Part shown: positions 2,388 to 64,000 of the stretch, one piece after another
Layout of the letters: every line of letters begins with the position of its first letter
Position numbering within the stretch: position 1 is the stretch's first letter
Assembly (NCBI GenBank): GCA_964601155.1
Contig: CAZRMO010000002.1
Location: 25,685-89,684, forward strand
DNA from: an uncultured Enterobacteriaceae bacterium
GTDB lineage: Bacteria > Pseudomonadota > Gammaproteobacteria > Burkholderiales > SG8-39
Direction: 5' to 3'
DNA length: 64,000 nucleotides
The notes under the pieces: model-generated
Database searches by the model: none
Told to the model about the DNA's origin: nothing
What the model saw: the letters and a program-made list of their open reading frames with translations, nothing else
Program-made: the position numbers and the translations under genes

Positions 2388-2649
2388 TGAACCCGAGTCG
2401 CTGCTCGCCTTTCCCTGCGACTTCCCGATCAAGGTGATGGGCGAGACCCAGCCCGGCTTCGCCCAGGCGGTGATGGAGGTGGTTCTGCGCCATGCCCCGG
2501 ATTTCGATGCGTCGGCGATGGAGATGCGCAAAAGCCGTTTGGGCAAGTACCTGTCGCTGACGGTCACCGTACGCGCGACTTCGCGCTTACAGCTCGATGG
2601 GCTGTATCGCGAGCTGTGCGATCACCCTATGGTCAAGATGGTGCTGTAG
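2374..2649 (+). CDS. ybeD: YbeD/DUF493 family protein
   Basis: The in-frame tail of ORF 2281..2649 starts at MPKLDEPESLLAFPCDFPIKVMG, the YbeD signature. It lies directly upstream of lipB, as in many proteobacteria. Confidence 0.85.
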   Translation: MPKLDEPESLLAFPCDFPIKVMGETQPGFAQAVMEVVLRHAPDFDASAMEMRKSRLGKYLSLTVTVRATSRLQLDGLYRELCDHPMVKMVL

Positions 2650-2651
2650 CC

Positions 2652-4275: not shown

Positions 4276-4366
4276 TCGAAGGCCGGGATCGCCGCTGCCG
4301 GAGAACGACCGGGGCGTGGAACGGCTTGGCGCAGATCTGACGTATACCTGGATCCAAGGAGATGCA

Positions 4367-5062: not shown

Positions 5063-5105
5063 GCGTGCGCATGCCTCACGGCCCGCGCCGCAAAGCGCAG
5101 GGGCG

Positions 5106-5789: not shown

Positions 5790-5806
5790 CTTGCCCGTAG
5801 ATACAG

Positions 5807-8518
5807 TTAGTGTGCCTGTTCCCAGTTTGCGCCCGCACCCACGTCCACGACAAGGGGCACCGCGAGCTCGGCCACGCCGGTCATCAGCCCCGGCAACTCC
5901 GCGCGTACCCGCGTAAGTTCCGCCTGCGGCACTTCCAACACCAGCTCGTCGTGCACTTGCATCACCAGTTTCGCCGAAAGTTGCTCCCGGTCGAGCCAGT
6001 CCTGCACCGCGATCATCGAGAGCTTGATCAGATCGGCCGCGGTTCCCTGCATCGGCGCGTTGATCGCAGCACGCTCGGCGCCCTGGCGCCGGCCGCTGTT
6101 GGCGGCGCGGATCTCGGCCAGCCACAGGCGGCGGCCGAACACGGTTTCGACATAGCCGCGCTCCCGCGCCTGCTCGCGCGTCTGCTGCATGTAGTGCGCC
6201 ACGCCGGGATAGCGCGTGAAATAACTGTCGATATAGGCCTGGGCGGTGGCGCGCTCCAAGCCCAAGGCCTGCGCGACGCCGAACGCCGACATGCCGTAGA
6301 TCAGGCCGAAGTTGATCACCTTGGCGTAACGGCGCTCTTCCGGCGTCACTTCGTGCAGCTCGCGGTTGAAAATCTCCGCGGCGGTGTGGCGGTGCACGTC
6401 CTCGCCGGCGGCGAAAGCGCGCAGCAGGTTCTCGTCGCGCGAGATGTGCGCCATGATGCGCAGCTCGATCTGCGAGTAGTCGGCCGAGACGATGACCGAA
6501 CCCGGCGGCGCGATGAAGGCCTCGCGGATGCGCCGCCCTTCCGGCGTGCGCACCGGAATGTTCTGCAGATTGGGATCGGTGCTCGCGAGGCGCCCGGTTA
6601 CCGCCGTCGCCTGGGCATAGTTGGTGTGCACGCGCCCGGTGGCGGGATTGACCATGCGCGGCAATTTGTCCGTGTAGGTGGATTTCAGCTTGGTCAGCGC
6701 GCGGTATTCGAGCAGCGTTTTGGGCAGGGGATAGTCCGCGGCCAGGCGCTCGAGCACCTCTTCGTCTGTGGAAGGCGCGCCCCCGGGCGTCTTCTTCAGC
6801 ACCGGCAACTTCAGACGCTCGAAAAAAATCTCGCCGATCTGCTTGGGCGAATTCAGGTTGAACGGCTGGCCGGCTTCCTTGTAGGCCTTGTTTTCGAGTT
6901 CCATCATTTTCTGTCCCAGTTCGCGGCTTTGCACCTCGAGCAGGGCGACGTCAATGAGCACGCCGTTGCGCTCCATCCGAAATAGCACTTCGCGCGCAGG
7001 CAGCTCTATATGCCGGTACACGTATTCGAGCCCGGCCTCAGCCTGCACCTGCGGATACAGGCACTGGTGCACGCGCAGGGTCACGTCGGCGTCCTCGGCC
7101 GAGTACTCGGTGGCGCGCTCGATGCTCACCTGCTCGAAGCCGATGCGCTGCGCGCCCTTGCCGGTGACGTCGTCGTAGCTGATGGTGGGTAGATGCAAAT
7201 GGCGCTCGGCGAGCGTACCCAGGTCGTGGCGCAAATGCGATTCGAGCACGTAGGATTCGAGTAGTGTGTCGTGCGCCACGCCGCGCAGCGCGACGCCGTG
7301 GTTGGCGAGCACGTGCTGGTCGTACTTAAGGTTCTGCCCGAGCTTCGCCCGGTCCGCGTTCTCCAGCCACGGCCGCAGCAGTTCCAGCGCGCGCGTCACG
7401 CCCAACTGTTGCGGCGCGCCGGCGTAGTCGTGCGCCAGCGGCAGATAGGCCGCGCGCCCGGGCTCGGCGCAAAAGGACATGCCCACCAGTTGCGCCGTCA
7501 TCGGATCCAGGCCGGTGGTTTCGGTATCGAAAGCAACCAGCGCGGCGCGATCGAGCACCCGCAGCCATTCGGCCATTTTTTGTTCGTCGAGAATGGCGTC
7601 GTAGTGGCGCGCCACCGGCTCGGGCGTGCTTTGCAGCGGCGGCGCAGCCGCTGCGGGCGACGCCTCGGTGCCGGTCGGCGCCGCTTCCTTGAGCCAGCTC
7701 TTGAAGCCGAAGCGCTGGAACAGGTCGGTCAGCTCGGCCTCGCCCTGCGGCTGCGCAACCAGTTCTTCCGGCTTCACCGGCAAGGGCACCTCGCAATACA
7801 CGGTAAGCAGCTTCTTCGCCTGCGGCAGCCAGGGCAGCGCGCGGCGCAGGTTCTCCCCCACCACGCCGCCGATTTCCTGCGCATGGGCGATCACCTCATC
7901 GAGCGAGCCGTACTTGGACAACCACTTGATCGCGGTCTTGGGGCCGACTTTTTCCACGCCCGGAACGTTGTCAGCGCTGTCACCGACGAGGGTGAGGTAG
8001 TCGAGCATCAGCCGCGGCGGCACGCCGAACTTGGCCTCGACGCCGGCTTCGTCCAGGCGCTCGTTGCTCATGGTGTTGATCAGCGTGACCTGCGGATTCA
8101 CGAGCTGCGTCAGGTCCTTGTCCCCGGTGGAGACGACGCAGCGCATGCCCGCCGCGCTCGCCTGCCGCGCGAGCGTGCCGATGACATCGTCGGCTTCCAC
8201 GCCGTCTATCATCAACAGCGGCCAGCCCAGCGCGGCGACGGCCTGGTGCAGCGGCTCGATCTGGCGCACGAGGTCCTCGGGCATGGGCGGGCGCTGCGCC
8301 TTGTACTCGGCATACCAGTCGTCGCGAAACGTCCTGCCTTTGGCGTCGAACACGCAGGCGAGATAGTCCGGCTTGTAGTCGGCGGCGAGGCGTCGTAGCA
8401 TGTTGAGCACGCCGTAGATCGCACCCGTGGGCTCGCCGCGCGCGTTGCGCAGATCCGGCAGCGCGTGGAATGCGCGGTACAGGTAAGACGATCCATCCAC
8501 CAACAGCAGGGTTTTCAT
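5807..8518 (-). CDS. polA: DNA polymerase I
   Basis: 903 aa. 5'-nuclease N-terminus MKTLLLVDGSSYLYRAFHA; family A polymerase motifs DYSQIELR and QVHDELV. Confidence 0.97.
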   Translation of the reverse strand: MKTLLLVDGSSYLYRAFHALPDLRNARGEPTGAIYGVLNMLRRLAADYKPDYLACVFDAKGRTFRDDWYAEYKAQRPPMPEDLVRQIEPLHQAVAALGWPLLMIDGVEADDVIGTLARQASAAGMRCVVSTGDKDLTQLVNPQVTLINTMSNERLDEAGVEAKFGVPPRLMLDYLTLVGDSADNVPGVEKVGPKTAIKWLSKYGSLDEVIAHAQEIGGVVGENLRRALPWLPQAKKLLTVYCEVPLPVKPEELVAQPQGEAELTDLFQRFGFKSWLKEAAPTGTEASPAAAAPPLQSTPEPVARHYDAILDEQKMAEWLRVLDRAALVAFDTETTGLDPMTAQLVGMSFCAEPGRAAYLPLAHDYAGAPQQLGVTRALELLRPWLENADRAKLGQNLKYDQHVLANHGVALRGVAHDTLLESYVLESHLRHDLGTLAERHLHLPTISYDDVTGKGAQRIGFEQVSIERATEYSAEDADVTLRVHQCLYPQVQAEAGLEYVYRHIELPAREVLFRMERNGVLIDVALLEVQSRELGQKMMELENKAYKEAGQPFNLNSPKQIGEIFFERLKLPVLKKTPGGAPSTDEEVLERLAADYPLPKTLLEYRALTKLKSTYTDKLPRMVNPATGRVHTNYAQATAVTGRLASTDPNLQNIPVRTPEGRRIREAFIAPPGSVIVSADYSQIELRIMAHISRDENLLRAFAAGEDVHRHTAAEIFNRELHEVTPEERRYAKVINFGLIYGMSAFGVAQALGLERATAQAYIDSYFTRYPGVAHYMQQTREQARERGYVETVFGRRLWLAEIRAANSGRRQGAERAAINAPMQGTAADLIKLSMIAVQDWLDREQLSAKLVMQVHDELVLEVPQAELTRVRAELPGLMTGVAELAVPLVVDVGAGANWEQAH

Positions 8519-47310: not shown

Positions 47311-47423
47311 CAGCCGTTTCGGAGTTTCCGAAACGGCCACCGGCCCGGTGAAACGTGAAAGGCAGTAACCGCTCACTTTGTGATAAGCGCTCGGCGCGCA
47401 GGCTCGCAGCCTCAAGTGTTATC

Positions 47424-47771
47424 TTACTTCGCCGCGATCACCGCAATCTCGACCAGTATGTCGGCGGCGGCGAGCTTGGCTTCGACGCACGCGCGCGCCG
47501 GCAGGCTGGCGGGGTCGACCCAGGCGAGCCAGGCCTGGTTCATTTCCTCGCGCGTGCGGATGTCGGCCAGCCAGATCTGCGCCGAGACGATCTTGGATTT
47601 ATGGCTGCCCGCCCGCGCCAGCAGCGCATCTATCCTGTCGAGGATCTCCTCGGTCTGTGCCTTGACCGTAGCCGGCCGCTTGTCGGCAACGGTGCCGCCG
47701 ACATAAACCATACCGTTCGCTTCGACGGCGCCGGAAAGAATTTTTGCGCTCTGGTGGCGGACGATGCTCAT
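47424..47771 (-). CDS. ridA: RidA/YjgF family reactive-intermediate deaminase
   Basis: 115 aa. C-terminal ARACVEAKL...VEIAVIA is typical of the RidA/L-PSP family. Confidence 0.85.
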   Translation of the reverse strand: MSIVRHQSAKILSGAVEANGMVYVGGTVADKRPATVKAQTEEILDRIDALLARAGSHKSKIVSAQIWLADIRTREEMNQAWLAWVDPASLPARACVEAKLAAADILVEIAVIAAK

Positions 47772-47793
47772 GCTGTGCTCCTTGAGTGGTGGG

Positions 47794-52287: not shown

Positions 52288-53571
52288 GTGACGTCACGTG
52301 AGCGCGTCTATCCGCCGCTGCGCCTTGGCTTTGCCACGTGGGGCTTGGGCGCCGCTTTTTATCTGATCGGCTTCTACCAGCGCGTCGCACCGGCGGTTAT
52401 CACGCGCGAACTGATGAGCGAGTTCACGCTCGGCGCCGCCGCATTGGGCAATCTCGCCGCGCTCTACTACTACAGTTATGTAGCGATTCAGATACCGGCG
52501 GGCCTGCTCGCCGATCGCTGGGGCCCGCGGCGCGTGCTCACCGCCGGAGCCGCGATCGCCGCGGCAGGCACACTGCTGTTTGCGCTCGCGCCGGATTATG
52601 CCCTGGCGGGCCTGGGCCGGCTGCTGATCGGGGGCTCGGTCGGCGTCGCCTTCGTCTCCATGCTCAAGCTCGCGGGCCACTGGTTCGCGCCTACGCGCTT
52701 TGCCATGATCGCCGGCCTCGCGCTGGCCTGCGGCGTCCTAGGTGCGGTCTCCGCCGGCGTGCCCCTGCGCCTGCTGGTGGATGCCTTCGGCTGGCGCAAT
52801 GTCATGAGCGCCGCCGCCGCCGTAACCGTGCTGCTCGCGGTGGCGATCTGGCTGGCGGTGCGCGACGACCCCGCCGAGCGCGGTTACGCCAGCTACGCGC
52901 CGGTCGCGCCCACGCAGCATGCGCCGATACTGGCAAGCATCGGGCGGGCGCTGGCCACGCGCAATGTCTGGCTGGTGTTCCTGATCTCGGGCGCGGTTTC
53001 GGGCCCGGCGCTCACCTTTGGCGGCTTGTGGGGCGTGCCCTTCCTGAGCACGCAATACGGAATCAGCATTTCGCAGGCTTCCATGATCACCTCGCTGGTC
53101 CTAGTTTGCTGGGCGGTGACCGGGCCGTTCGTGGGGGCGCTCTCGGACCGCTTGCGCCGGCGCAAGCCCCTGTATGTCCTAGGTGCCGTGGTCGCCGCCG
53201 CGGGCTGGTGCTGCGCCCTGCTGCTGCCGAACCTGCCGCTCACCTTGGTGATCGTCCTCCTCGCAATCACCGGCTGCGCTTCGTCCGCAGTGATGGTGGG
53301 CTTCGCCATCGCCAAGGAATCGGCGCCGGCGGCCCTGGCCGGAACCGCGGGCGGCATTGCCAATATGGGCAATATGCTGGGCGGCATGATCATGCAGCCG
53401 GCGGTCGGATGGGTGCTGGACCGGCGCTGGGCCGGGACGCTGGCCAACGGCGCGCGCGTCTACGATTTCAACGCCTACCGCGCCGGCTTTGCGCTGATGC
53501 TTGCTTGGCTCGCAGCCGCGCTCTTACTGCTCGTGTTCGTGCGCGAAACCCATTGCCGCCAGACGCAGTAG
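52288..53571 (+). CDS. MFS transporter
   Basis: 427 aa with about 12 predicted TM helices. The MFS loop motif is G.LADRWGPRR. GTG start. Confidence 0.85.
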   Translation: MTSRERVYPPLRLGFATWGLGAAFYLIGFYQRVAPAVITRELMSEFTLGAAALGNLAALYYYSYVAIQIPAGLLADRWGPRRVLTAGAAIAAAGTLLFALAPDYALAGLGRLLIGGSVGVAFVSMLKLAGHWFAPTRFAMIAGLALACGVLGAVSAGVPLRLLVDAFGWRNVMSAAAAVTVLLAVAIWLAVRDDPAERGYASYAPVAPTQHAPILASIGRALATRNVWLVFLISGAVSGPALTFGGLWGVPFLSTQYGISISQASMITSLVLVCWAVTGPFVGALSDRLRRRKPLYVLGAVVAAAGWCCALLLPNLPLTLVIVLLAITGCASSAVMVGFAIAKESAPAALAGTAGGIANMGNMLGGMIMQPAVGWVLDRRWAGTLANGARVYDFNAYRAGFALMLAWLAAALLLLVFVRETHCRQTQ

Positions 53572-53738: not shown

Positions 53739-54788
53739 ATGATAAAGAAACCGACGCGAATTGCATTGACCGGCGCCATCCTGGGCCTAGCCATGGCTCT
53801 ATCCGGGCTTGTGCAAGCCGCACCCAAATATATATTCAAGCTGCACCACTTTCTGAGCGCAAAGTCGCCGGCCCAAACCAAGATGCTCGAGCCGTGGGTG
53901 GCTCAGGTGGAGAAGAATTCCGGCGGGCGCGTCAGAATCGACATCTATCCGTCCATGACCCTAGGCGGCAGCCCGCCGCAGCTGATTAACCAGGTCCGCG
54001 ACGGCGTCGTCGATCTAGTCTGGACCGTCAACGGCTACACGCCGGGATTGTTCCCGCGTACGGAGGTGTTCGAACTGCCGTTCATCCACACCAACAATCC
54101 CGGTGCGACTTCGCGCGCGATGTACGACATGTTCAAGGAAGATCTCGCTCCGGAGTACAAGGGCGTGGAGGTCATGTTCCTGCACGTGCATGCCGGTCAG
54201 GCTTTCCAGATGGTCGACAAGCCAGTGCGCAAGCCTTCGGACCTCGCGGGTCTGAAGATACGCATCCCGAGCCGAACAGGCGCGTGGGTCATCGAGGCGC
54301 TCGGCGCGACGCCGGTCGGCATGCCGGTGCCACAGCTGCCGCAGGCGCTGTCGAAGAAGATCGTAGACGGTGCGCTGATCCCATGGGAGATCATCCCGCC
54401 GCTCAAGCTACAGAATCAAACCGAGTACGACATCGAAGGTCCGAACAAGACCCGTTTCGGCACCACCACGTTCCAGGTGTCGATGAACAAGGCGCGCTGG
54501 GACAGCCTACCCGCCGATATCAAGAAGGCCTTCAGGGATGCATCCGGTCCAGACTGGTGGCGGAAAGTCGGCGATATCTGGGCCGCCGATGACGATGAAG
54601 GCATCGCGGTCGCGGTAAAATCCGGCAACAAGCACATCATGCTTACCGACGCCGAGATGGCGGCTTTCCGCACCAAGCTTAATCCGGTTGTCGATCGCTG
54701 GATCGCCGAAGTCAATAGCAAGGGTATCGACGGCGCGGCGCTGGTAGCGAAGGCGCGCAGACTGATCGCCAAGTACTCCAAGCAGTAG
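53739..54788 (+). CDS. TRAP transporter substrate-binding protein (DctP family)
   Basis: Signal peptide MIKKPTRIALTGAILGLAMALSGLVQA. DctP-like body. Followed by Q and M subunits. Confidence 0.88.
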   Translation: MIKKPTRIALTGAILGLAMALSGLVQAAPKYIFKLHHFLSAKSPAQTKMLEPWVAQVEKNSGGRVRIDIYPSMTLGGSPPQLINQVRDGVVDLVWTVNGYTPGLFPRTEVFELPFIHTNNPGATSRAMYDMFKEDLAPEYKGVEVMFLHVHAGQAFQMVDKPVRKPSDLAGLKIRIPSRTGAWVIEALGATPVGMPVPQLPQALSKKIVDGALIPWEIIPPLKLQNQTEYDIEGPNKTRFGTTTFQVSMNKARWDSLPADIKKAFRDASGPDWWRKVGDIWAADDDEGIAVAVKSGNKHIMLTDAEMAAFRTKLNPVVDRWIAEVNSKGIDGAALVAKARRLIAKYSKQ

Positions 54789-54794
54789 AGTAAA

Positions 54795-55322
54795 TTGGTC
54801 GCGGAAACGCCTGAAGCATCGCGGTGGGCGAAATTCGATAAACTCGCCCGCCGCCTTATCGAGGGATGGGCGCTGCTCGGCGGGGTGCTGCTGCTAACCA
54901 TCGCGCTGATGAACACCTGGTCGGTGATCTCCTTGGCCGTTCTTGGTTTCCCGGTGCCCGGAGACTTCGAGATGGTAAAGATGGGCGTCGCCATCGCCGC
55001 GTTCAGCTTTCTGCCCTACTGCCAGCTGAAGGGCGCCAACGTCACTGCCGATATTTTCACCGCATGGGCGTCACGCAAAACGGTGGCGGCATTCGAACTG
55101 TTGGCGGCAATCGTGGCGGCGCTTTTCTCCGTTCTCCTGCTCTGGAGGATGTCGTACGGGATGGTCAGTTACCTGCGCTACGACGAGGTTACGACCATCC
55201 TGAACATTCCGCAGTGGACCGCCTTCCCGCCTATCCTGGCCTCGCTTGCATTGCTCGTTCTCGCCGCAGCGCTCACCCTGCACGAGGCGATCATCGAGAT
55301 GCGCTCCGGAAATCCCGCATAA
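54795..55322 (+). CDS. TRAP transporter small permease (DctQ family)
   Basis: 175 aa, four hydrophobic helices, lying between the P and M subunits. TTG start is uncertain. Confidence 0.8.
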   Translation: MVAETPEASRWAKFDKLARRLIEGWALLGGVLLLTIALMNTWSVISLAVLGFPVPGDFEMVKMGVAIAAFSFLPYCQLKGANVTADIFTAWASRKTVAAFELLAAIVAALFSVLLLWRMSYGMVSYLRYDEVTTILNIPQWTAFPPILASLALLVLAAALTLHEAIIEMRSGNPA

Positions 55323-55337
55323 GCCGAGCTGGACGAC

Positions 55338-56696
55338 GTGGAATATCAACTTCTGACTGGTATCGTCGGGCTGCTCGCGCTGGTCGCGCTGATCGCCATC
55401 CGCATGCCCATCGCCTATGCCATGATCCTAGTCGGGGGCGTCGGCGTGACCATCCTCAACGGGCCGGATATCTTCCTGGCGCAACTCAAGAACCTGGCCT
55501 ATTCCCAGTTCTCGATCTACGATCTGTCTGTGGTGCCGATGTTTGTCCTGATGGGCTCCATTGCGACCCAGGCAGGGCTGTCGCGCGATCTCTTCGCCGC
55601 CGCCAATGCCTGGCTCGGATGGTTGCGCGGCGGAGTCGCAATGTCGGCCATTGCCGCCTGCGCCGGATTCGGTGCGGTCTGCGGTTCGTCGCTCGCGACC
55701 GCTTCCACCATGGGGCAGGTTGCGTTTCCAGAGCTGCGCCGCTATCACTACAAGGACGCGCTGGCCACCGGAACCCTGGCTGCCGGCGGGGTTCTAGGCA
55801 TCCTGATCCCGCCGTCGGTGGTGCTGGTCATCTATGCCATCATCGTCGAGGCCAACATCATAACCATGTTCATGGCCGCGATGCTGCCCGGCATCCTCGC
55901 GGTCGTCATGTTTATGGTGACCATCGCCCTCTACGTCGCCTTCTTTCCGGAATCCGGGCCCAAAGGTCGCGCCGCTGGTCGCGCCGAGTTCATCGTGGCA
56001 ACAGTCCGCGTCCTGCCGGTGCTGGTGATCTTCGGGATAGTCATTGGCGGCATCTATGCAGGCCTGTTTGACCCGACCCCGGCGGCAGCCGTAGGCGTCG
56101 TCCTGGTAGCGATCTACGGCATCGCCCGCGGATCGGTGAAACTGCCTCAGTTGAAGCTTTCGCTGCTCGAGACCGCGCGCACCACCGGCATGATCTACCT
56201 GATACTGCTCGGCGCCGAAATGCTCAAGATATTCATGGCGCGCGGCGGCGTACCGCAGGCGATGGCGACGTGGATGCTCGGCTCAGGACTGTCGGCGATG
56301 TCGATATTGATCATCCTGCTGATCGCGCTGATTCTCCTGGGCTGCCTGATGGACAGCCTGTCGATGATCCTGCTGGCGATTCCGTTCTTCTGGCCGGTGC
56401 TGGTCGCCATCAACGGCGGCGACCACGTCAGCGCCGCCAACGCCGCCTTCGGCATGACGGCTGAAGACCTGAAGATCTGGTTCGGCATCCTCGCGCTGGT
56501 CGTGGTCGAACTGGGGCTGATTACGCCGCCGGTGGGAATGAACGTCTTCGTCATATCGGCGATGGTTCCGGATGTGCCGATGGGCAAAATCTTCCTCGGC
56601 GTGGTACCGTTTTTCGTCTCGGAGATGATCCGCGTAACCTTGCTGGTCATGTTCCCAGCCATCACCCTCTGGTTGCCGAGGATACTTAGCGGCTGA
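55338..56696 (+). CDS. TRAP transporter large permease (DctM family)
   Basis: 452 aa polytopic protein of typical DctM length and position. GTG start. Confidence 0.88.
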   Translation: MEYQLLTGIVGLLALVALIAIRMPIAYAMILVGGVGVTILNGPDIFLAQLKNLAYSQFSIYDLSVVPMFVLMGSIATQAGLSRDLFAAANAWLGWLRGGVAMSAIAACAGFGAVCGSSLATASTMGQVAFPELRRYHYKDALATGTLAAGGVLGILIPPSVVLVIYAIIVEANIITMFMAAMLPGILAVVMFMVTIALYVAFFPESGPKGRAAGRAEFIVATVRVLPVLVIFGIVIGGIYAGLFDPTPAAAVGVVLVAIYGIARGSVKLPQLKLSLLETARTTGMIYLILLGAEMLKIFMARGGVPQAMATWMLGSGLSAMSILIILLIALILLGCLMDSLSMILLAIPFFWPVLVAINGGDHVSAANAAFGMTAEDLKIWFGILALVVVELGLITPPVGMNVFVISAMVPDVPMGKIFLGVVPFFVSEMIRVTLLVMFPAITLWLPRILSG

Positions 56697-56804
56697 TTCG
56701 CGGCGCGCCGATCATTGCGGACCGACGACAGATCGGTATCAGCTACCGGTCGGCGCAGTCCTCTGCCCTCGCCCAATGTCCGGCCGTTCTCTGCGTATCG
56801 CCGC

Positions 56805-57635
56805 TCACTGGCGCCATACCGCCAGATTTGCGTTGCCGCTGCCTGAAGACTGGGCGTAGCCGCCAAACTGCTCACCAGCGAGCCGCGCACCATCTTCCTT
56901 CAACGCCTGCAAGGCGCCGAGCATGACAGCCAGGGGCTTGCCGTTCATTTCCGCCACCGCCGCGCGGCTGTATTCAGGAAACCCGGCAATCGCTTCTGCC
57001 AGCGCCCCTTGCTTCAGCTGATTGATGAAGCGCTGGTCCAGCGCTTCGCGCTCAGGCGTGGGCTTCAAGTGACGGCCGCGCACCAGATCGTGGCTAAAGG
57101 CAGAACTCGCGAGGAACACGACGCGCCTACCCAGGCGCTTCGCCGTCGCATGCACGGCACGTCCCGCCTGCATGCACTCGGCATGATCGGCGAGAATTAC
57201 CGTAGGCATCTGCACCACCGGCACCTCCGCATCGGGGTCCAGGTGCAGCAGCGGCACCAGGCTGCCGTAGTCCCAAGCGTAGTGCGGCGTTTCATTGCGG
57301 CCGCCGGGAAGTCCCTGCGCCTGCCATTCTTCGACCATGGCAGAGGCGAACTCGCTGTCGCCCTTGCGCCGATAGGGTATGCCCGGAATCAAATCGGGTG
57401 CCTCGTCCGCAACGCACATGCCTTCGTGCACGCTCTGGCAGGTCGCATACCAGCCAAAGGTGCAGATCCAGTGCGCCGAGTTGACCACAAACAGGTCCGG
57501 TTTCAGATCGCGCAAGGCGCGGCCCAGCGCGCGCTCGCCCTCGACCAGGGTAAGCTGGAAGTCGGGGGTGTTCTGCGCCAGGCCCAGCGTTGGCACATGG
57601 GGCACGACAGCAGCGGAGATAACGCCCGGTTCCAT
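56805..57635 (-). CDS. Class III (LigB-type) extradiol ring-cleavage dioxygenase, single subunit
   Basis: AAVVPHVP N-terminal His motif, then NSAHW, WDYGSLVPL and SSAFSHDL segments typical of the LigB/MEMO-fold dioxygenase superfamily. No LigA-like small subunit nearby. Confidence 0.75.
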   Translation of the reverse strand: MEPGVISAAVVPHVPTLGLAQNTPDFQLTLVEGERALGRALRDLKPDLFVVNSAHWICTFGWYATCQSVHEGMCVADEAPDLIPGIPYRRKGDSEFASAMVEEWQAQGLPGGRNETPHYAWDYGSLVPLLHLDPDAEVPVVQMPTVILADHAECMQAGRAVHATAKRLGRRVVFLASSAFSHDLVRGRHLKPTPEREALDQRFINQLKQGALAEAIAGFPEYSRAAVAEMNGKPLAVMLGALQALKEDGARLAGEQFGGYAQSSGSGNANLAVWRQ

Positions 57636-57647
57636 GGAATGTCCTCG

Positions 57648-58094
57648 CTATACAGCCTTGGTTTCGGCTTCGCGCTTGGCTAGGTTGGCGAGGATTTCCG
57701 CGCCGCGGTTGGCCGCAGGCAGGCCGCGGAAAAGAAAACAAAGATTGATCACCCCCTGCAACTCCTCCCAGCTCGCGCCCGCGCGCCGCGCCGCGATCGC
57801 GTGCAGCGGGGCCGCGTCGCTCAGATCCATCAGCAGCATGCCGAACAGCATCATTTGGGCGGTTTTCACGTCGAAGCACTTGGGGTACATGCCGTGCTCG
57901 CGGATGCGCTCCTGCAAATCCAGCATCTGCGGGTCGAGCGCGCCGGTCACATTGAGCCGCGCCTCAATGCGCGGCGGGACGAAGCCGATCAACTCCTGAT
58001 AGATCGCGGCGCGCTGCGCCATCGTCTCTTTATCGTCGGCGTATTCGCCCATCGCAGCCTGTACGGCCTTGATGTCTATGCGTGGTGGCAGCAT
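57648..58094 (-). CDS. Carboxymuconolactone decarboxylase (AhpD-like) family protein
   Basis: 148-aa all-helical protein resembling CMD/AhpD-fold proteins, a call made from memory. Its stop is 12 nt upstream of the dioxygenase start. Confidence 0.6.
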   Translation of the reverse strand: MLPPRIDIKAVQAAMGEYADDKETMAQRAAIYQELIGFVPPRIEARLNVTGALDPQMLDLQERIREHGMYPKCFDVKTAQMMLFGMLLMDLSDAAPLHAIAARRAGASWEELQGVINLCFLFRGLPAANRGAEILANLAKREAETKAV

Positions 58095-58185
58095 GAGCCT
58101 CCCGGTAATGATTTGTCAGAACGAATACGCGCAGGCGCAGCTGTGCCGCTTAGCGCTCCCGTCGCGTACAAGAATATTGTTCGAC

Positions 58186-59664
58186 TCATTTCTCTACCGC
58201 TCCCGTGAGATACAAGTCTTTCAGTTTGCGCCGCTGCAGCTTGCCGGTAGCTGTGAGCGGCAGCTCGCTTACCCATTTCACCAGACGCGGCCGCTTAAGC
58301 TTAGGCAATGCGGCGATGCCCGTGGCCAAACGCTCGCGCGCTTGCGTCTCCTGCCCGCTCGCGGCCACGGCGAATAAGGCGATTGAAACCAGGCCTTCGG
58401 CGTTTTCAAAGCCCACCGCCGCCAAGCCATCGACGCAGCCCGCGCTCGCCGCGAGCAGCGCTTGCTCCACGTCCAGGATGCTTACCCACTGCCCGGAAAT
58501 CTTCACCATATCGTCGTTGCGCCCGCACAACTCCATGGACCCGTCTTCGTGCCGCCGGAACAAGTCCCCAGGTGAAAACCAGCCGTCGTCGAAGCTGTCG
58601 CGTACGGCGTCTGGGCGGCGCCAGTAGCCGAGCGCGACCGAGGGATGGCGCAGCCACAAGCGCTGCGGCGCCGCGGCGTCACTCGCATCGCGCATACGAT
58701 ATTCGAGCCGCGGCGACGGCTTGAGCAGCGCGCTGTCATCATCGCAGTAGAACATCAGAGCCACGGTTTCCGAGGCGCCATAGCCCGAGACCGGCGCCAC
58801 GCCGCTTGCCTCGCGCCATTCGCGCCGCACCGCCTGCGGCAGGGCTTCGCCCGCCGAGCCGTAGTGGCGCACCCCCGCCGCGCGCAACCGCCCCGCCACG
58901 CCTGCCTGCAGCATCTTCAGGTAAAGCGTGGGTACCGAAAACAACGCCGTCGGCCGATGCTTTTCGGCCACCTCGGCCACCCGCTCGGCTGTAGGCCACT
59001 CGGTGTCGAGAATCACCGTAGCACCCAAGCGCAAGCCGGCGCAAAAGCTGTTGCCGAGCGCGTAGGCGAAAAACATTTTTGACGAAGCGTAGATGCGGTC
59101 TTGCGCGCCGAGGCCGAGGATTTGTTGCGCGAAATCGGCGCTGGCGATGACGGTGCGTTGGGCGTGTATAACGGCTTTGGGAACGCCGGTAGTGCCGGAA
59201 GTATAGATCCACATCGCTGGGGCGTCGTCAGGCAATTCCGCCGCCGCTATGGGTGCGACAGACGCCAGCCCTGCGCTCCACTCGGCATCGATCACCAGCC
59301 GCGGCGGGTTGGCGATGTTCGCGAGCAGCCGCTCCAGCAGTGCGCGCGAGCTTTCCTTGCACCAGATGAAACGCGCCTCGGATTCCGACAGCACCACCGT
59401 CAGCTCGCGCTCGAACAGGCGCGAGTTCAAACCCACGGCGACGCCCCCCGCCCAGATCGCACCCAGATAGGCGATCGCCCAGTCGATGCCGTCCGGTGCG
59501 AACACCAACACGCGATCGCCCTGTGCAAGACCACGCGCGCGCCAGGCAGCGGCGGCGCGCCCCACTAGTTCGCGCAGTTCGCTATAACTCAGGCGCTCCT
59601 CTCCGCATTCCAGCGCGATCGCGCCGGCTTCACCGGTAGCGAGCAGATATGCAGCGGCGTTCAT
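58186..59664 (-). CDS. Aryl-carboxylate-CoA ligase (benzoate-CoA ligase-like, AMP-forming)
   Basis: AMP motif YTSGTTGVPKAV, GYGASE, DDMVKISGQWVS (compare DDMLKVSG.WVS of benzoate/4-hydroxybenzoate-CoA ligases), and C-terminal TATGKLQRRKL. Confidence 0.85.
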   Translation of the reverse strand: MNAAAYLLATGEAGAIALECGEERLSYSELRELVGRAAAAWRARGLAQGDRVLVFAPDGIDWAIAYLGAIWAGGVAVGLNSRLFERELTVVLSESEARFIWCKESSRALLERLLANIANPPRLVIDAEWSAGLASVAPIAAAELPDDAPAMWIYTSGTTGVPKAVIHAQRTVIASADFAQQILGLGAQDRIYASSKMFFAYALGNSFCAGLRLGATVILDTEWPTAERVAEVAEKHRPTALFSVPTLYLKMLQAGVAGRLRAAGVRHYGSAGEALPQAVRREWREASGVAPVSGYGASETVALMFYCDDDSALLKPSPRLEYRMRDASDAAAPQRLWLRHPSVALGYWRRPDAVRDSFDDGWFSPGDLFRRHEDGSMELCGRNDDMVKISGQWVSILDVEQALLAASAGCVDGLAAVGFENAEGLVSIALFAVAASGQETQARERLATGIAALPKLKRPRLVKWVSELPLTATGKLQRRKLKDLYLTGAVEK

Positions 59665-59682
59665 GGGCGGCGGTGGCTTGGT

Positions 59683-60387
59683 CTAGAGCGGCGCGACAAT
59701 GTTCACGCGCAACTCGCCCAGGCCGTCTATGCCAGCCAGCAATTCGTCACCGACCTTGGCCGCGCCTACCCCTGCCGGGGTCCCGGTGAATATGGCGTCG
59801 CCGGCCTCGAGCGTGTAATACTGCGTCAGGAACGCGATCTGCTCGGGCACGCTCCAGATCATCTGGTCGATATCCGATTGCTGCCGAAACTCGCCATTCA
59901 CCTTGAGCCAGAGCTTGCCCGTGGACGGATGTCCCACCTTGCTCGCCGGCGTAGCCGGCCCGCAAGGCGCGGCTTGGTCGAAATCCTTGCCGAAGCTCCA
60001 CGGGCGACCTTTGTCCTTGCCGACCTGCTGCAGGTCGCGCCGGGTCATGTCCAGGCCGATGGCGTAGCCCCAGACGTGATCATTGGCGCGCTCGGCGGCG
60101 ATCTTGTAGCCACCCTTGCCGATCAGCGCAACCATCTCGGTTTCCCAGTGATAGTTGTTGCTCATCGGCGGGTAGTGAATGTTGCCTTTCTCGCCTGCTT
60201 CGACCGCGACCAGATCATGCGGCGCTTTACAGAAAAAGAATGGCTGCTCGCGGCCGTCGCCGCCCATCTCCTTCTGGTGTTCGACATAATTGCGGCCGAC
60301 GCAGAATATGCGCCGCACCGGAAAGCGGTCTTTGGAACCAGCCACAGGCAGCGAAGGCAGCTGCCACATTTCGACGACATAATTCAC
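59683..60387 (-). CDS. Fumarylacetoacetate hydrolase (FAH) family protein, fumarylpyruvate-hydrolase-like
   Basis: RIFCVGRNYVEHQKEMG...PFFFCK, E.E(M)V.LIGK and TGTPAGVG motifs of the short FAH family. Confidence 0.85.
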   Translation of the reverse strand: MNYVVEMWQLPSLPVAGSKDRFPVRRIFCVGRNYVEHQKEMGGDGREQPFFFCKAPHDLVAVEAGEKGNIHYPPMSNNYHWETEMVALIGKGGYKIAAERANDHVWGYAIGLDMTRRDLQQVGKDKGRPWSFGKDFDQAAPCGPATPASKVGHPSTGKLWLKVNGEFRQQSDIDQMIWSVPEQIAFLTQYYTLEAGDAIFTGTPAGVGAAKVGDELLAGIDGLGELRVNIVAPL

Positions 60388-60849
60388 TTCTGACTCCCTT
60401 ACGTGAAGCCCGGCACTTGCCGGGGTGCAACCCAGAAAAAATCCAATCCGCCGTACTTACCGCAGCCGGAATCGATGTCGCATCGCGGTTCCGATCGGCT
60501 GTTCAAAAACGACTTAGCTCGCTGCGACAGGAACCGCATGGGCCGGGGCGTGCCCGCGTGATCCGCATGAACCCTCCTCCTGACACCGTTGCGGCGCTCG
60601 ACGCGCTCTGCAGCCGGCTGCTCGTTCGACACACTATGATGATTTGTGTCTATCGTGTCAATTCATCGCTTACCCGCATGATGCGACTGTTAGCTGCGCC
60701 GCAGCGACAGCGCAGCAACGCTCGAACGACGTATTGCAACTGCCATGATGCCGTCGGCGCCCTGGGTATGCTGTCGCGCCCAATGCCTTGTCGTCGGCGC
60801 CGCTTTGCTTCTTGCCTTTTTACCATAATTCATGTTACTTTTGCGCAAC

Positions 60850-60867
60850 TGAATGAATATTCATTCA
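60850..60867. promoter_or_regulatory. Perfect 18-bp palindrome, candidate operator in the divergent catabolic promoter region
   Basis: TGAATGAATATTCATTCA equals its own reverse complement. Extra ATTCAT copies occur at about 60661, 60828 and 60884. It sits in an AT-richer patch about 160 nt upstream of the SDR gene. Confidence 0.5.
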
Positions 60868-61028
60868 TCCGGATTCTAGCCGATTCATGCGCAGGCGGAA
60901 AGGGGTTGGTGCGTTCCGTCAGGCCGGGTCGATCCGGGTTCGGGGCGAACACGGCGAACGCGCGGCGCGGCGCGGCAATGGCCGTGCAACGAAAATTTTA
61001 AGATTTTCCTTAATTTGCGGAGCGAAAA

Positions 61029-61775
61029 ATGCGACTGGACGGCAAGACGGCTGTGGTTACCGGAGCGGCATCGGGTATCGGGCGGGCGACCGCGGAAACA
61101 CTGGCTCAGGCGGGGGCGCACGTGCTGCTCGGCGACATTGCCGAGCAGTCGGGCGAGGACGCCGCCGCGGCGATCCGCGCCAAGGGCCTGGGAGCGGATT
61201 TTTTCCGCCTGGATGTAACCGATCTCGAATCGATCGAGGCGTTCAAACGCGCCGCCTACGCGAAGCGCGGGCACGTGGACATAATCGTGAACGTAGCCGG
61301 CTGGGGCAAGATAGAACCGTTCGTCAAGAACACGCCCGACTTCTGGCGCAAGGTCATCGATCTCAACCTGTTCGGGCCGATCGCGGTAACGCGCGCGTTC
61401 CTCGACGACATGATAGAGCGCAAGACAGGCAAGGTCGTCACTGTTTCCAGCGATGCGGGCCGCGTCGGCAGCCTGGGAGAGTCGGTTTATTCCGGTGCGA
61501 AAGGCGGCGCGATCGCGTTCACCAAATCGCTGGCGCGGGAAATGGCGCGCTTCAACATTAACGTGAACTGCGTCTGCCCCGGTCCGACGGACACGCCGCT
61601 GCTCGCGGTGGTGCCGGAGAAGCACCGGGAGGCGTTTGTGCGCGTTACCCCGATGGGGCGCCTGGCCAAGCCTTCCGAGATCGCCGATGCCGTGCTGTTC
61701 TTCGCCAGCGGCCGCGCGGACTTCGTCACCGGTCAGACCTTGAGCGTGAGCGGCGGCCTGACCCTCGCCGGTTGA
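61029..61775 (+). CDS. SDR family oxidoreductase, BadH-like (2-hydroxyacyl/alicyclic acyl-CoA dehydrogenase type)
   Basis: TGAASGIG cofactor motif and YSGAK catalytic motif. NVAGWGKIEPFVKNT and SDAGRVGSLGESVYSGAKGGAIAFTKSLAREMARFNINVNCVCPGPTDTPLL track the BadH sequence as I remember it. Confidence 0.85.
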   Translation: MRLDGKTAVVTGAASGIGRATAETLAQAGAHVLLGDIAEQSGEDAAAAIRAKGLGADFFRLDVTDLESIEAFKRAAYAKRGHVDIIVNVAGWGKIEPFVKNTPDFWRKVIDLNLFGPIAVTRAFLDDMIERKTGKVVTVSSDAGRVGSLGESVYSGAKGGAIAFTKSLAREMARFNINVNCVCPGPTDTPLLAVVPEKHREAFVRVTPMGRLAKPSEIADAVLFFASGRADFVTGQTLSVSGGLTLAG

Positions 61776-61820
61776 TTCCGCGAATTTTCATTACCCACTA
61801 TCAGCAACCTGGAGAATCGC

Positions 61821-62639
61821 ATGTACAAACTCAAAGCCGCCGAGTGGCGTCCGCAGCATTTCAAATGGGAAGTCAAGGATCGCGTCGGCACCGTCACGCT
61901 GAATCGTCCCGAACGCAAGAACCCGCTGACGCTGGAGAGCTACGCCGAACTGCGCGACACGTTCCACAAGCTGCAGTACGCCGAGGACGTGCGCGCCGTG
62001 GTATTCACCGGTGAGGGCGGCAATTTCTGCTCCGGCGGTGACGTGCACGAAATCATCGGCCCGCTGACCAAGATGGACATGACCGGACTGATCAACTTTA
62101 CCCGCATGACCGGAAACCTGGTGAAGGAAATGCGCACCTGCCCGCAGCCGATCATCTCGGCGGTCGACGGAATATGCGCCGGAGCGGGGGCGATCATTTC
62201 AATGGCGAGCGACCTGCGCTACGGCACCCCGGAATGCAAGACCGCGTTCTTGTTCGTGCGCGTCGGCCTGGCTGGCTGCGACATGGGCGCTTGCGCGATA
62301 CTGCCGCGCATCATCGGGCAGGGCCGGGCGTCGGAGTTGTTTTACACCGGGCGCGCGATGTCGGCCCAGGAAGGGCAGGCATGGGGCTACTACAATGAAA
62401 TCGTACCCAAGGACAAGCTGGTCGAGCGTGCGCATGCAATGGCGCAGGAAATCGCCGACGGCCCGTATTTCGCCCATTCGATGACCAAGAAGTGCCTGCA
62501 CCAGGAATGGAACCAGACCATCGAGCAGGCGCTGGAGACGGAGGCGGAGGCACAGGCGATCTGCATGCAGACCAAAGACTTCACGCGCGCCTACAACGCG
62601 TTCGTGGCCAAGCAAAAACCGGCCTTCGAGGGTAATTGA
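61821..62639 (+). CDS. Enoyl-CoA hydratase/isomerase (crotonase) family protein
   Basis: [25 protein letters not shown] and ICAGAGA oxyanion-hole segments. Confidence 0.88.
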
Positions 62640-62724
62640 GGCGCCGCCGCCCGGCTGCTGCAGCGCCCACCGATTCTAAGGGGCGCTGCGGGGACGCGGC
62701 CCACCGATCTGCAGCGGGTGTAAG

Positions 62725-63453
62725 ATGAAATCGCCGGGACATGTGGCAAGTCTGGTCACCGACACCAAACTGGTGGAAGAGCGCCGGGGACAAATTCTGC
62801 GCGCGGCGGTGAAGCTTTTTTCGGACAAGGGTTACTACACTACTACCATCTCACAGATCGCCCGCGAAGCGGGCGTGAGCACCGGCCTGATCTACCAATA
62901 TTTCGGCGACAAGGACGACGTCCTGCTGCTTTCGCTCAAGCTGGTGCTGGAGACTTATGAAAAGGAAATTCCGCCTCGCCTCGAGGGCATCAAGCACCCG
63001 GTCGAGCGGCTGTGCATGGCATTGTGGGCGTACTGCACCATAGTGGACGGCTTGCGCGAGGCGACCATCCTCGCCTACCGCTCGACCAAATCGCTGCGCG
63101 CAGACCGCAGGGCCTTGATCAAGCAGGATGAGATCCGGACCAACCGGCTGCTGCAGGACTGCTTGCGCGCCTGCATCGCCGGAGGCTACATGCGCCAAGT
63201 GAACGAGTATCTTCTGGTCTATCAGTATGTGCATTTCTGTCATGCCTGGGCGCTGAAACATTGGGCTTGGCGCGCCCGGTTCAGCCTGGGCAAATACGTA
63301 TCCGAAGGCATAGGGCTTCTGGTCGAGCCTTTTCTAACGTCCAAGGGACACAAGGCGCTCGCAACGATGCGGCGGCGCACCGCCGATTTCACGCGCGAGG
63401 CGAAACCGACGCCGCGCTCAGGACGCGGACCCAGGCACCTGAGCGCGCGCTGA
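62725..63453 (+). CDS. TetR/AcrR family transcriptional regulator
   Basis: N-terminal HTH ILRAAVKLFSDKGYYTTTISQIAREAGVSTGLIYQYF. Confidence 0.88.
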   Translation: MKSPGHVASLVTDTKLVEERRGQILRAAVKLFSDKGYYTTTISQIAREAGVSTGLIYQYFGDKDDVLLLSLKLVLETYEKEIPPRLEGIKHPVERLCMALWAYCTIVDGLREATILAYRSTKSLRADRRALIKQDEIRTNRLLQDCLRACIAGGYMRQVNEYLLVYQYVHFCHAWALKHWAWRARFSLGKYVSEGIGLLVEPFLTSKGHKALATMRRRTADFTREAKPTPRSGRGPRHLSAR

Positions 63454-63568: not shown

Positions 63569-64000
63569 TCATTCGACTTTTTCGCCGTGCAGGGCGAGGT
63601 CGAGACCTTCACGCTCTTCATCCGCGGTGACGCGCAGGCCGATGGTCATGTCGAGCACCTTGAGAATGATGAAGCTCATGATGCCGCTGTAGAGCAGAGT
63701 AGTCATCACACCGTAGAACTGGGTGAGCAGGCTGCCGTCGGCGCCACTGATCTCCTTGACGTTGAGCACACCGGTAAGCAGCGCACCGACAATGCCGCCG
63801 ACGCAGTGCACACCGAAGGCGTCCAGAGAGTCGTCATAGCCGAAGGCCTTCTTAACCGACGTCGAGGCGAAGAAGCAGATTACGCCGGCGGCGATACCGA
63901 TGATCAGGGCACCGCTCGGTCCGACGAAGCCCGAAGCCGGCGTAATCGCGACCAGTCCGGCAACGGCGCCAGAAGCGATACCCAGGACCGAGGGCTTGCC
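63569..64000 (-). CDS. amtB: Ammonium transporter (C-terminal part; 5' end beyond the window)
   Basis: The frame stays open to the window edge. The segment FGYDDSLDAFGVHCVGGIVGALLTG is the conserved Amt twin-His region. The ORF-track entry 63569..63811 is only the part after an internal Met. Confidence 0.9.
   Translation of the reverse strand, partial: GKPSVLGIASGAVAGLVAITPASGFVGPSGALIIGIAAGVICFFASTSVKKAFGYDDSLDAFGVHCVGGIVGALLTGVLNVKEISGADGSLLTQFYGVMTTLLYSGIMSFIILKVLDMTIGLRVTADEEREGLDLALHGEKVE

Follow-up and report, generated by a model that had tools for sequence, protein, structure and literature searches.

A putative aromatic-acid catabolic locus combining a LigB-type extradiol dioxygenase, a CMD-like protein and an aryl-CoA ligase

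Positions 53739-63453 of a 64,000-nucleotide stretch of DNA (the window) from an uncultured Burkholderiales lineage of soil and groundwater, represented by metagenomes only, carry ten intact genes between a major facilitator superfamily (MFS) gene and amtB. They encode a tripartite ATP-independent periplasmic (TRAP) importer, an operon with a LigB-type extradiol dioxygenase, a CMD-like protein, an aryl-CoA ligase and a FAH-family hydrolase, and a divergent operon with a short-chain dehydrogenase/reductase (SDR), a crotonase-fold enzyme and a TetR regulator. We tentatively read this locus as an aromatic-acid catabolic island, an account that we consider quite possible and hold with less than full conviction. 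A free catecholic acid would be imported, cleaved by the LigB-type enzyme and decarboxylated by the CMD-like protein, the CoA enzymes forming a lineage-specific side branch.

In the proposed mechanism, the importer, a TarP-type TRAP by family, would take up an aromatic monocarboxylate. The Fe(II) extradiol dioxygenase would cleave the imported catecholic acid as free acid, protocatechuate or a close analogue being the most likely substrate. As suggested by gene context, the CMD-like protein would remove the benzoate-derived carboxyl from the ring-fission product, the job of PraH in the pra pathway, by means of an unrelated fold. The product, presumably 2-hydroxymuconate semialdehyde (or 2-hydroxymuconate), would enter an ordinary lower meta pathway encoded elsewhere in the genome. 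The ten genes, their flanks and two control elements are as follows.

52288-53571, plus strand: MFS gene (flank)
53739-54788, plus strand: DctP, TRAP solute-binding protein of the aromatic-acid/TarP clade (Pfam DctP, 161 bits)
54795-55322, plus strand: DctQ, TRAP small membrane subunit (Pfam DctQ, 59 bits)
55338-56696, plus strand: DctM, TRAP large membrane subunit (Pfam DctM, 251 bits; TIGR00786, 271 bits, above cut-off)
56805-57635, minus strand: LigB-like, type II extradiol dioxygenase, single subunit, 276 aa, last gene of its operon (Pfam LigB, PF02900, 88.2 bits)
57648-58094, minus strand: CMD-like, putative CMD/AhpD-fold protein, 148 aa (Pfam CMD, 19 bits, under cut-off)
58186-59664, minus strand: aryl-CoA ligase, AMP-forming (Pfam AMP-binding, 208.7 bits)
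59683-60387, minus strand: FAH, short FAH-family hydrolase of the acylpyruvate type, first gene of its operon (Pfam FAA_hydrolase, PF01557, 187 bits)
60633-60661, minus strand: sigma-70-like promoter (TTGACA-17-CATAGT) of the FAH-ligase-CMD-LigB operon, from a consensus scan; both hexamers invariant in 7 aligned relatives
60850-60867, no strand: perfect 18-bp palindrome TGAATGAATATTCATTCA, candidate TetR operator, unique in the window with 0 copies expected by chance
61029-61775, plus strand: SDR, BadH-like (Pfam adh_short_C2, 208 bits)
61821-62639, plus strand: crotonase-fold enzyme of the NF006107 (PRK08258) family (484 bits)
62725-63453, plus strand: TetR regulator (Pfam TetR_N, 64 bits; TetR_C_24, 27 bits)
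63572-64000, minus strand: 3' part of amtB (flank)

In transcription order the minus-strand operon runs FAH, aryl-CoA ligase, CMD-like and LigB-like gene, with gaps of 18, 91 and 12 bp. A spacer of 641 bp (60388-61028) lies between this operon and the divergent SDR operon, and the TetR gene follows the crotonase gene on the same strand after 85 bp. Profile scans and translations bear out the gene families, strands, order and MFS/amtB flanks given in an earlier note on this DNA, which had also put the divergent spacer at about 640 bp; the eleven genes of which it spoke are ten by our count. Its description of the importer as a plus-strand DctPQM-type TRAP likewise stands, and profiles, PDB matches and a structure model add that it is of the aromatic-acid type.

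The dioxygenase scores well above the cut-off of the LigB family (PF02900, 88.2 against 26.3 bits). In the alignment with HpaD (8iq8) its residues H13, H55, H182 and E229 fall on the conserved His/His/His/Glu, and they are invariant in 15 and in 8 relatives, and both the 2-His-1-carboxylate Fe(II) site and the catalytic His are present. By these residues it is an extradiol dioxygenase with an intact site, predicted to cleave aromatic rings. Its best matches of solved structure, HpaD and AmnB, are about 25-28% identical, and it reaches 94.4 bits with the HpaD model TIGR02298, whose cut-off is 315.95. A two-subunit enzyme of the LigAB type is not indicated: no open reading frame (ORF) of the stretch matches LigA, the 148-aa protein encoded upstream being CMD-like, and LigB (1BOU-type) chains are not among the PDB matches.

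More is learned from the genes beside its homologues. The nearest homologue with informative context (34% identity) lies in a Priestia cluster of IclR, Amidohydro_2 decarboxylase, 2-hydroxymuconate-semialdehyde (HMS) dehydrogenase-like dehydrogenase, 4-OD, 4-OT and DmpG-like aldolase, which is the pra gene set. Relatives at 60-63% identity sit in CMD-Aldedh-LigB-XylJ-XylI clusters, and the aldehyde dehydrogenase of one such cluster exceeds the equivalog cut-off for 2-hydroxymuconic-semialdehyde dehydrogenase (881 against 693 bits); LigB relatives that are 60-67% identical have a true HMS dehydrogenase as neighbour. In many other genomes LigB and CMD genes occur together with no CoA enzyme, and a free acid is therefore the most likely substrate of the dioxygenase. 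We know of no LigB-type enzyme that acts on a CoA thioester.

The CMD-like protein scores 19 bits with Pfam PF02627, below the cut-off of 23, and its assignment rests on homologues annotated as CMD family and on fold matches that are weak and all CMD/AhpD. Its AlphaFold2 model is all helical (predicted local distance difference test, pLDDT, 83), and the top Foldseek matches are CMD family proteins (2qeu, 2af7, 1vke, 1p8c) at E >= 0.5 and template modelling (TM) scores of 0.33-0.45. The family name of the earlier note leans on homologue annotation and on these weak fold matches, the Pfam score falling short. The protein is highly conserved, being 74% identical to a homologue on a Hydrogenophaga plasmid, 67-68% to those on Thermus plasmids and 47% to one of Bacillus mycoides. 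Invariant are H98, E62, R65, K77, Q80, R103, E111 and N129. The redox CxxC of AhpD is absent, and Thermus and Bacillus have Ala in place of C119. Searched with a subfamily profile, 1.84 billion representatives gave only 233 clusters at 50% identity, so that the profile does not reach the bulk of the CMD family.

Its company is that of meta-cleavage genes. In Thermus thermophilus JL-18 the stop codon of the CMD-like gene overlaps the start of a catechol 2,3-dioxygenase gene, in a cluster with IclR, 4-hydroxybenzoate 3-monooxygenase and every lower meta-pathway step and with no Amidohydro_2 decarboxylase. In Burkholderiales the gene ends lower meta-pathway operons of the order Aldedh-DmpFG-FAH-tautomerase, and it also occurs in CMD-FAH-LigB, LigB-CMD-Aldedh and CMD-Aldedh-LigB-XylJ-XylI units. 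These clusters have the CMD-like gene and lack the amidohydrolase. PraH is an ACMSD-like amidohydrolase related to NbaD and OpaD (PMC6362003), and Pfam finds no such protein (Amidohydro_2) in the stretch. We propose a decarboxylase role because a carboxylate importer combined with a route through the dehydrogenase of unsubstituted HMS needs a decarboxylation, for which the CMD-like protein is the only candidate. The distribution has the pattern of a non-homologous replacement of the amidohydrolase; the CMD-like protein may work like PraH and is not PraH.

Other roles for this protein were considered. A LigA-like small subunit is rejected, since the CMD-like gene also accompanies a type I dioxygenase and lower-pathway operons that have no dioxygenase. 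A XylT-like redox reactivator is unlikely, there being neither a CxxC nor a cofactor motif. Homology to PraH is rejected on the ACMSD-like nature of PraH, which leaves only non-homologous replacement. As a separate observation, a 47%-identical CMD-like gene on a Bacillus mycoides plasmid (L026, 8977-13146) lies amid KAS III-like genes, an aminotransferase, an adenylate-forming enzyme and an ATP-grasp protein with no dioxygenase nearby; this cluster looks biosynthetic, and the subfamily may have a second role in Firmicutes.

The importer also points to aromatic acids. The best PDB sequence matches of DctP are 5im2, 7nr2, 5i5p, 5iga and 7nsw. Its AlphaFold2 model (pLDDT 87) matches aromatic-acid-specific TRAP solute-binding proteins and TarP with coumarate, cinnamate, ferulate or caffeate at TM scores of 0.85-0.87 and 36-40% identity, and the nearest structural matches include hydroxybenzoate-type 'aromatic acid' binders as well. 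With a binding protein closest to these proteins and with DctQ and DctM both present, the importer has all the parts of a TarP-type aromatic-acid TRAP. Both alternative TRAP binding proteins found at this site match the same structures. Orthologues of the window's DctP (68-77% identity) are found in Pelagibius, Rhodovulum and one metagenome genome, where they adjoin aromatic-acid genes. The neighbours are either a thiamine diphosphate (ThDP)-dependent enzyme accompanied by an aldehyde dehydrogenase or molybdenum-cofactor oxidoreductase, or a ligase and an Hcr-like enzyme. In Pelagibius marinus (L126, 7424-13683) and Rhodovulum iodosum (L127, 6350-13577) the ThDP-dependent enzyme follows the TRAP genes, the aldehyde dehydrogenase or molybdenum-cofactor oxidoreductase lying upstream. 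The ThDP-enzyme neighbours hint at an aryl-2-oxo acid (phenylglyoxylate-type) as substrate for the TRAP type of the window.

The relatives of the locus show how its parts belong together. The exact LigB-type protein occurs only on metagenome contigs, all with identical gene order. A GTDB scan yielded 17 loci at 79-94% identity, all from metagenome-assembled genomes of uncultured Burkholderiales or Betaproteobacteria and none from a cultured host. A further 80 loci, of which 29 have 60-67% identity, came from scanning metagenomes with a broader alignment. Loci were annotated by tblastn and blastp against labelled reference proteins, and key unknowns were checked with Pfam and NCBIfam; gene calls on the metagenome loci are heuristic, and many loci may stem from closely related populations. 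Ligase and FAH genes lie upstream of LigB in 37 of the 39 close relatives with enough flank, the other two being cut by contig ends. The CMD-like gene accompanies LigB in 43 of 48 close and 20 of 29 distant loci. SDR and crotonase genes (with or without TetR) are adjacent in 29 of 31 close relatives, the exceptions being L010 and L021. The latter, otherwise intact, lacks SDR, crotonase and TetR and has a pyruvate carboxylase gene between amtB and FAH instead. In L010 an inserted block displaces the SDR and crotonase genes out of range; this block (2370-7993; TetR, PaaK-like ligase, MeaB and the large and small subunits of an acyl-CoA mutase) stands between the aryl-CoA ligase and the CMD-like gene and resembles a 2-hydroxyisobutyryl-CoA mutase module.

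The transporter slot is the most variable part. Among 57 classifiable relatives, 9 have no transporter, 5 have the window's TRAP on the opposite strand, 32 have a second TarP-like TRAP interleaved with the operon and 11 have an ABC transporter with Peripla_BP_6. The 32 interleaved cases, all close relatives, have the order CMD-DctP-LigB-DctQ-DctM, and this unit stands alone in other genomes (L122/L123, L109). An FNR/Fre-like reductase gene lies upstream of FAH in 11 of 37 relatives, several of which also have MarR, and in some relatives a separate MarR gene precedes the LigB operon. The window has neither the FNR-like reductase gene nor MarR, and no remnant of the reductase upstream of FAH. 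Where it opens the LigB operon (L009 4761-5621, L013 6299-7159, L019 5665-6519, L039-L043, L051, L053-L055), the reductase is a flavin reductase resembling the C-terminal part of BenC, with no Fer2 domain; it could keep the dioxygenase iron reduced. In most loci with 60-67% LigB identity (L033, L090, L092, L093, L102, L103, L105, L110-L112, L115) an SGL (SMP-30/gluconolactonase-like) gene is found nearby on the opposite strand, which may encode a lactonase tied to the ring-fission product.

Distant versions of the site (L106, L107, L117) have a different gene order and no CMD-like gene, with ligase at 36-38%, FAH at 66% and LigB at 61-65% identity. In L106 (2946-17756) a BenC-like reductase, a PaaA-like di-iron protein of 235 aa, another SDR and FAH, a second ligase (both ligase genes being of the benzoate-CoA ligase family) and a 4-hydroxybenzoyl-CoA reductase (HcrA 1228 bits, HcrB 439 bits, both above cut-off) are added, with TetR, crotonase and SDR genes further on. 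In many genomes at 60-67% LigB identity, LigB and CMD occur, with or without TRAP, and without ligase, crotonase or SDR. The locus is thus composed of three separable modules and is not one fixed pathway. Only ligase, FAH and LigB are persistently found in one operon, and the SDR-crotonase-TetR module is usually inherited with that operon, yet separable from it. The earlier note had taken the three units as one set: the operon of ligase, FAH and LigB is persistent, whereas the TRAP is swapped or missing in many relatives and SDR-crotonase-TetR is absent from L021.

Even relatives with as little as 70% MetH identity have the locus at this same chromosomal site (metH ... amtB). The DNA is thus no recent acquisition, flexible though its content is. 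GC content is 62.4% here and 64.1% in the remainder of the window; of 109 sliding windows only two are lower, and positions 28-36 kb are similarly low. The earlier note was literally right in calling the stretch more AT-rich; the dip is small and matched elsewhere, so that its inference of accessory DNA is weak, and composition is rejected as a sign of foreign origin, the effect being too small.

Judged by motifs and profile scores, the ligase is a complete adenylate-forming enzyme that lies on the margin of the benzoate-CoA ligase family. Its best model is that of HbdA, 3-hydroxybenzoate-CoA ligase (NF053567, 367.8 bits, cut-off 1000), followed by TIGR02262 benzoate-CoA ligase (310.8 bits, cut-off 375.25), both below cut-off; the benzoate-CoA ligase structure 2v7b gives 217 bits, and the adenylation motifs are readable in the translation. 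A plasmid search at E <= 1e-60 found no ligase homologue. The FAH protein matches 6j5y (280 bits) and the 'putative fumarylpyruvate hydrolase' 4maq (242 bits) and keeps the GRNYxEHxxE motif. Homologues with 52-55% identity are encoded between genes for gentisate 1,2-dioxygenase or 3-hydroxybenzoate 6-monooxygenase and maleylpyruvate isomerase. Fold and similarity are those of a fumarylpyruvate hydrolase of the NagK type, the genomic partners are not, and we assign the protein as a NagK-type acylpyruvate hydrolase on these similarities. Speculatively, ligase and hydrolase could be a lineage-specific addition to the operon, in which the ligase would thioesterify the extra carboxyl or a related acid and the hydrolase would split a 2,4-dioxo acid into pyruvate and a shorter acid. 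Since CMD occurs without the ligase elsewhere, the ligase without CMD in L106 and L117, and both together here, the two might even be alternative ways of handling the same extra carboxyl.

In the divergent operon, the SDR is a classical SDR. The BadH-like label of the earlier note fits in kind, although the score with TIGR03206 (BadH, 256 bits) stays under the cut-off of 431.2. The crotonase-fold enzyme exceeds the cut-off of its family (NF006107, 484 against 330 bits). Where a FadB-like hydratase has its two catalytic Glu, the aligned residues of this enzyme are Ile and Val, and the same is true of the 67%-identical orthologues. Because both glutamates are replaced, it is probably an isomerase, hydrolase or lyase acting on ring-CoA compounds and not a hydratase of beta-oxidation, contrary to the thioester hydratase first supposed. 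The orthologues, in Ralstonia and Paracoccus, lie beside 'salicylyl-CoA 5-hydroxylase/oxidoreductase', acyl-CoA dehydrogenase, ligase, thioesterase and RidA genes. SDR, crotonase and TetR would then form a self-regulated unit for ring or alicyclic CoA-thioester chemistry, as in aryl-CoA monooxygenase/reductase clusters. RidA proteins are deaminases in aminophenol and aryl-CoA clusters. A RidA/YjgF-family gene is found in the window at about 47400-47790 (L001 15720-16067), 3' of metH here and in most related loci, set apart from the locus by the metH, rhodanese and MFS genes.

The control region agrees with separate regulation. Of 41 related loci that keep the palindrome TGAATGAATATTCATTCA, all but one have it 85-170 bp from the SDR start, the other at 309 bp; its distance from FAH is 200-565 bp, and L021, which is without TetR, does not have it. 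Owing to its near-fixed distance from SDR, its variable distance from FAH and its loss together with TetR, it is best read as the operator of the SDR-crotonase-TetR operon alone. The window scan found no copy upstream of dctP. One shared TetR operator for all units is rejected, as there is a single palindrome, which tracks the SDR operon and is not upstream of dctP. No Rfam riboswitch or small RNA matches the 641-bp spacer at E <= 1. A 47-codon ORF (60690-60833, minus strand), which is annotated as a gene on JGI contigs, begins just beyond the palindrome toward FAH, where relatives carry the FNR-like gene; being poorly conserved, it is probably not a gene.

Several functions were sought and not found. 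Pfam and NCBIfam profile scans of the stretch ORFs gave no match to thiolase, LigA or PaaA_PaaC (the di-iron acyl-CoA oxygenase, BoxB/PaaA, of the Box and Paa pathways), and detected no gentisate 1,2-dioxygenase or maleylpyruvate isomerase. Reference proteins run by tblastn against the whole window revealed no acyl-CoA dehydrogenase, DmpFG aldolase, HMS dehydrogenase, XylI/J-type FAH or tautomerase, and a Ralstonia protein run likewise revealed no aryl-CoA monooxygenase/reductase. The absence of thiolase, acyl-CoA dehydrogenase, aldolase, aldehyde dehydrogenase and LigA, as remarked in the earlier note, holds.

The earlier note had suggested a hybrid route for one imported aromatic or alicyclic carboxylate, matching no textbook pathway. 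Literature searches for the gene combination returned only generic genome surveys and no characterised pathway. The aromatic-acid importer and the ligase sharing an operon with LigB and FAH are in keeping with a hybrid; the lack of a fixed set of units, the non-hydratase crotonase and the ligase-free LigB-CMD pairs are not. In its linear form, the ligase would make a catecholic aryl-CoA, LigB would cleave the thioester, the crotonase would hydrate a 2-formyl-enoyl-CoA, the SDR would oxidise it to a 2,4-dioxo acid, FAH would cut this into pyruvate and a malonyl-type CoA fragment, and the CMD-like protein would decarboxylate the fragment, so that all seven enzymes act in line. Such a scheme has its attractions: ligase, LigB and FAH share an operon in relatives both close and distant, an acylpyruvate suited to a NagK-type hydrolase would result chemically once the thioester is hydrated and oxidised, no aldehyde dehydrogenase is required and none is present, and the two operons are adjacent around their common 641-bp control region in 29 of 31 relatives. 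The PaaA-like di-iron oxygenase, BenC-like reductase and true 4-hydroxybenzoyl-CoA reductase added in L106 imply that aryl-CoA chemistry belongs to this site. Nevertheless we judge the linear scheme unlikely, as LigB and CMD manage without ligase, crotonase and SDR in many genomes, the crotonase lacks both hydratase glutamates, the operator tracks the SDR operon only, L021 does without that operon, and cleavage of a thioester by a LigB-type enzyme would have no precedent known to us.

Slightly less credible still is that the CoA enzymes feed the dioxygenase. A hydroxycinnamate such as caffeate would enter through the TRAP and be shortened in its side chain by CoA-dependent beta-oxidation (ligase, crotonase, SDR, and FAH as C-C hydrolase) to protocatechuate, whose ring LigB and CMD would open. 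The beta-oxidative deacetylation route known from Agrobacterium fabrum Atu1414-1421 begins with three such steps: ligase, hydratase and dehydrogenase. TarP binding proteins do bind coumarate, ferulate, caffeate and cinnamate (PDB entry titles; PMC3610893). But the ligase falls in the benzoate-CoA ligase family and not in that of 4CL/feruloyl-CoA synthetase, the crotonase has no hydratase residues and its 67%-identical orthologues stand in ring-CoA clusters, no thiolase was detected in the stretch, the structural matches of DctP extend to hydroxybenzoate-type binders, and only 5 of the 57 classifiable relatives have this TRAP type. A better case, though one we still think doubtful, can be made for mere adjacency at an aromatic-acid hot spot, where ligase and FAH would serve a gentisate or 3-hydroxybenzoate-type route with its dioxygenase and hydroxylase elsewhere, LigB and CMD a protocatechuate-type route and SDR-crotonase-TetR a benzoyl-CoA-type route. 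Flexible content (four transporter states, optional FNR-like reductase, MarR and CMD, the mutase module of L010, the hcr genes of L106), the gentisate-pathway homologues of FAH, the 3-hydroxybenzoate-CoA ligase model as best model of the ligase and the separate regulators all fit it. It does not sit well with the packing of FAH, ligase, CMD and LigB, 12-91 bp apart, behind one conserved promoter, nor with the trio of ligase, FAH and LigB, which outlasts both a change of gene order and the swap of the ligase for a 36-38% paralogue and is hard to explain without shared function.

A number of points weigh against the free-acid island with its CMD-like decarboxylase, which we prefer. The usual substrate of NagK-type hydrolases is fumarylpyruvate from gentisate, not an expected product of a LigB-type enzyme, and the ligase resembles enzymes for intact aromatic rings, so that a feeder role fits it equally. 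The CMD-like gene is without a nearby dioxygenase in some contexts and absent from five close relatives, and its product may instead serve as an isomerase or as a helper of the dioxygenase. All relatives are metagenome contigs, and tblastn finds no lower meta-pathway gene in the window. As all loci with ligase, FAH and LigB lie at one site, their synteny is mostly inherited and not independent evidence; function shows more tellingly in the swap for a distant ligase paralogue and in the various aromatic-acid transporters that were recruited independently. That PraA is of the LigB type is itself inferred from the 881-bp size of a clone (PMC13254512) and from the Priestia cluster.

Going one step further, we suggest, with rather low confidence, that the CMD-like protein may define a new family of decarboxylases (or isomerases) of carboxylated extradiol ring-fission products, which would replace the unrelated amidohydrolases PraH, DhbB and CmtD from Burkholderiales to Thermus. 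In this lineage the same carboxyl could alternatively be caught as a CoA thioester by the ligase, opening an undescribed CoA-dependent branch of meta-cleavage that ends in an acylpyruvate hydrolase. If true, this would give a function to a small, extremely conserved family in meta-cleavage clusters of several phyla, and a known step of protocatechuate meta-cleavage would gain a new solution by a non-homologous protein. For CoA-dependent processing of ring-fission products, of which we know no precedent, the operon of ligase and extradiol dioxygenase would then offer a concrete candidate. If the modules are independent, the locus is an ordinary catabolic hot spot. Close relatives of the locus are found on many contigs of metagenome assemblies derived from JGI, ENA and SRA, with 751 protein clusters of the LigB type and 2,318 of the CMD-like type, and contig titles of relatives name groundwater and lake samples.

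Among known systems, the pra pathway of Paenibacillus sp. JJ-1b (PraA dioxygenase, PraH decarboxylase, 4-oxalocrotonate branch) is one of the closest. As is proposed for the locus, a carboxylated catechol is attacked there by an extradiol dioxygenase that is a single subunit of about 280 aa, and decarboxylation then merges the product into the catechol meta pathway. The pra-like cluster of Priestia has the 34%-identical LigB homologue, and proteobacterial relatives pair the LigB-type gene with HMS dehydrogenase, XylI and XylJ. Unlike the pra pathway, the locus has an unrelated CMD-like protein in place of the ACMSD-like amidohydrolase PraH (PMC6362003), no praB-G in the window, and a CoA ligase and NagK-type FAH in addition; identity to the Priestia enzyme is low. 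With the gentisate pathway the locus shares a hydrolase of the NagK/MhbH type (6j5y, 4maq), 52-55% identical to those of gentisate clusters, with 280 bits against 6j5y and the GRNYxEHxxE motif; it differs in having a LigB-type ring-cleavage neighbour where that pathway has gentisate 1,2-dioxygenase and maleylpyruvate isomerase.

The aryl-CoA hybrid clusters with 2-aminobenzoyl-CoA/salicylyl-CoA monooxygenase-reductase on Ralstonia and Paracoccus replicons, which we take to be linked to the Azoarcus evansii abm type, are without counterpart here for the monooxygenase/reductase, acyl-CoA dehydrogenase, thioesterase and RidA, and have MarR where the locus has TetR. They resemble it in the 67% crotonase orthologue, the SDR, the aryl-CoA ligase and a small transcription factor. 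HpaD (homoprotocatechuate 2,3-dioxygenase) and AmnB (2-aminophenol 1,6-dioxygenase) are only about 25-28% identical to the LigB-like protein, which reaches 94 bits against an HpaD cut-off of 316, but superfamily and active-site residues are the same. TarPQM and other aromatic-acid TRAPs (Rhodopseudomonas palustris, Chromohalobacter salexigens, EFI targets from a marine metagenome) have couAB as neighbours, whereas the importer described here adjoins a LigB-type dioxygenase and a CMD-like protein; its binding protein belongs to the same clade as theirs, at 36-40% identity and TM scores of 0.85-0.87.

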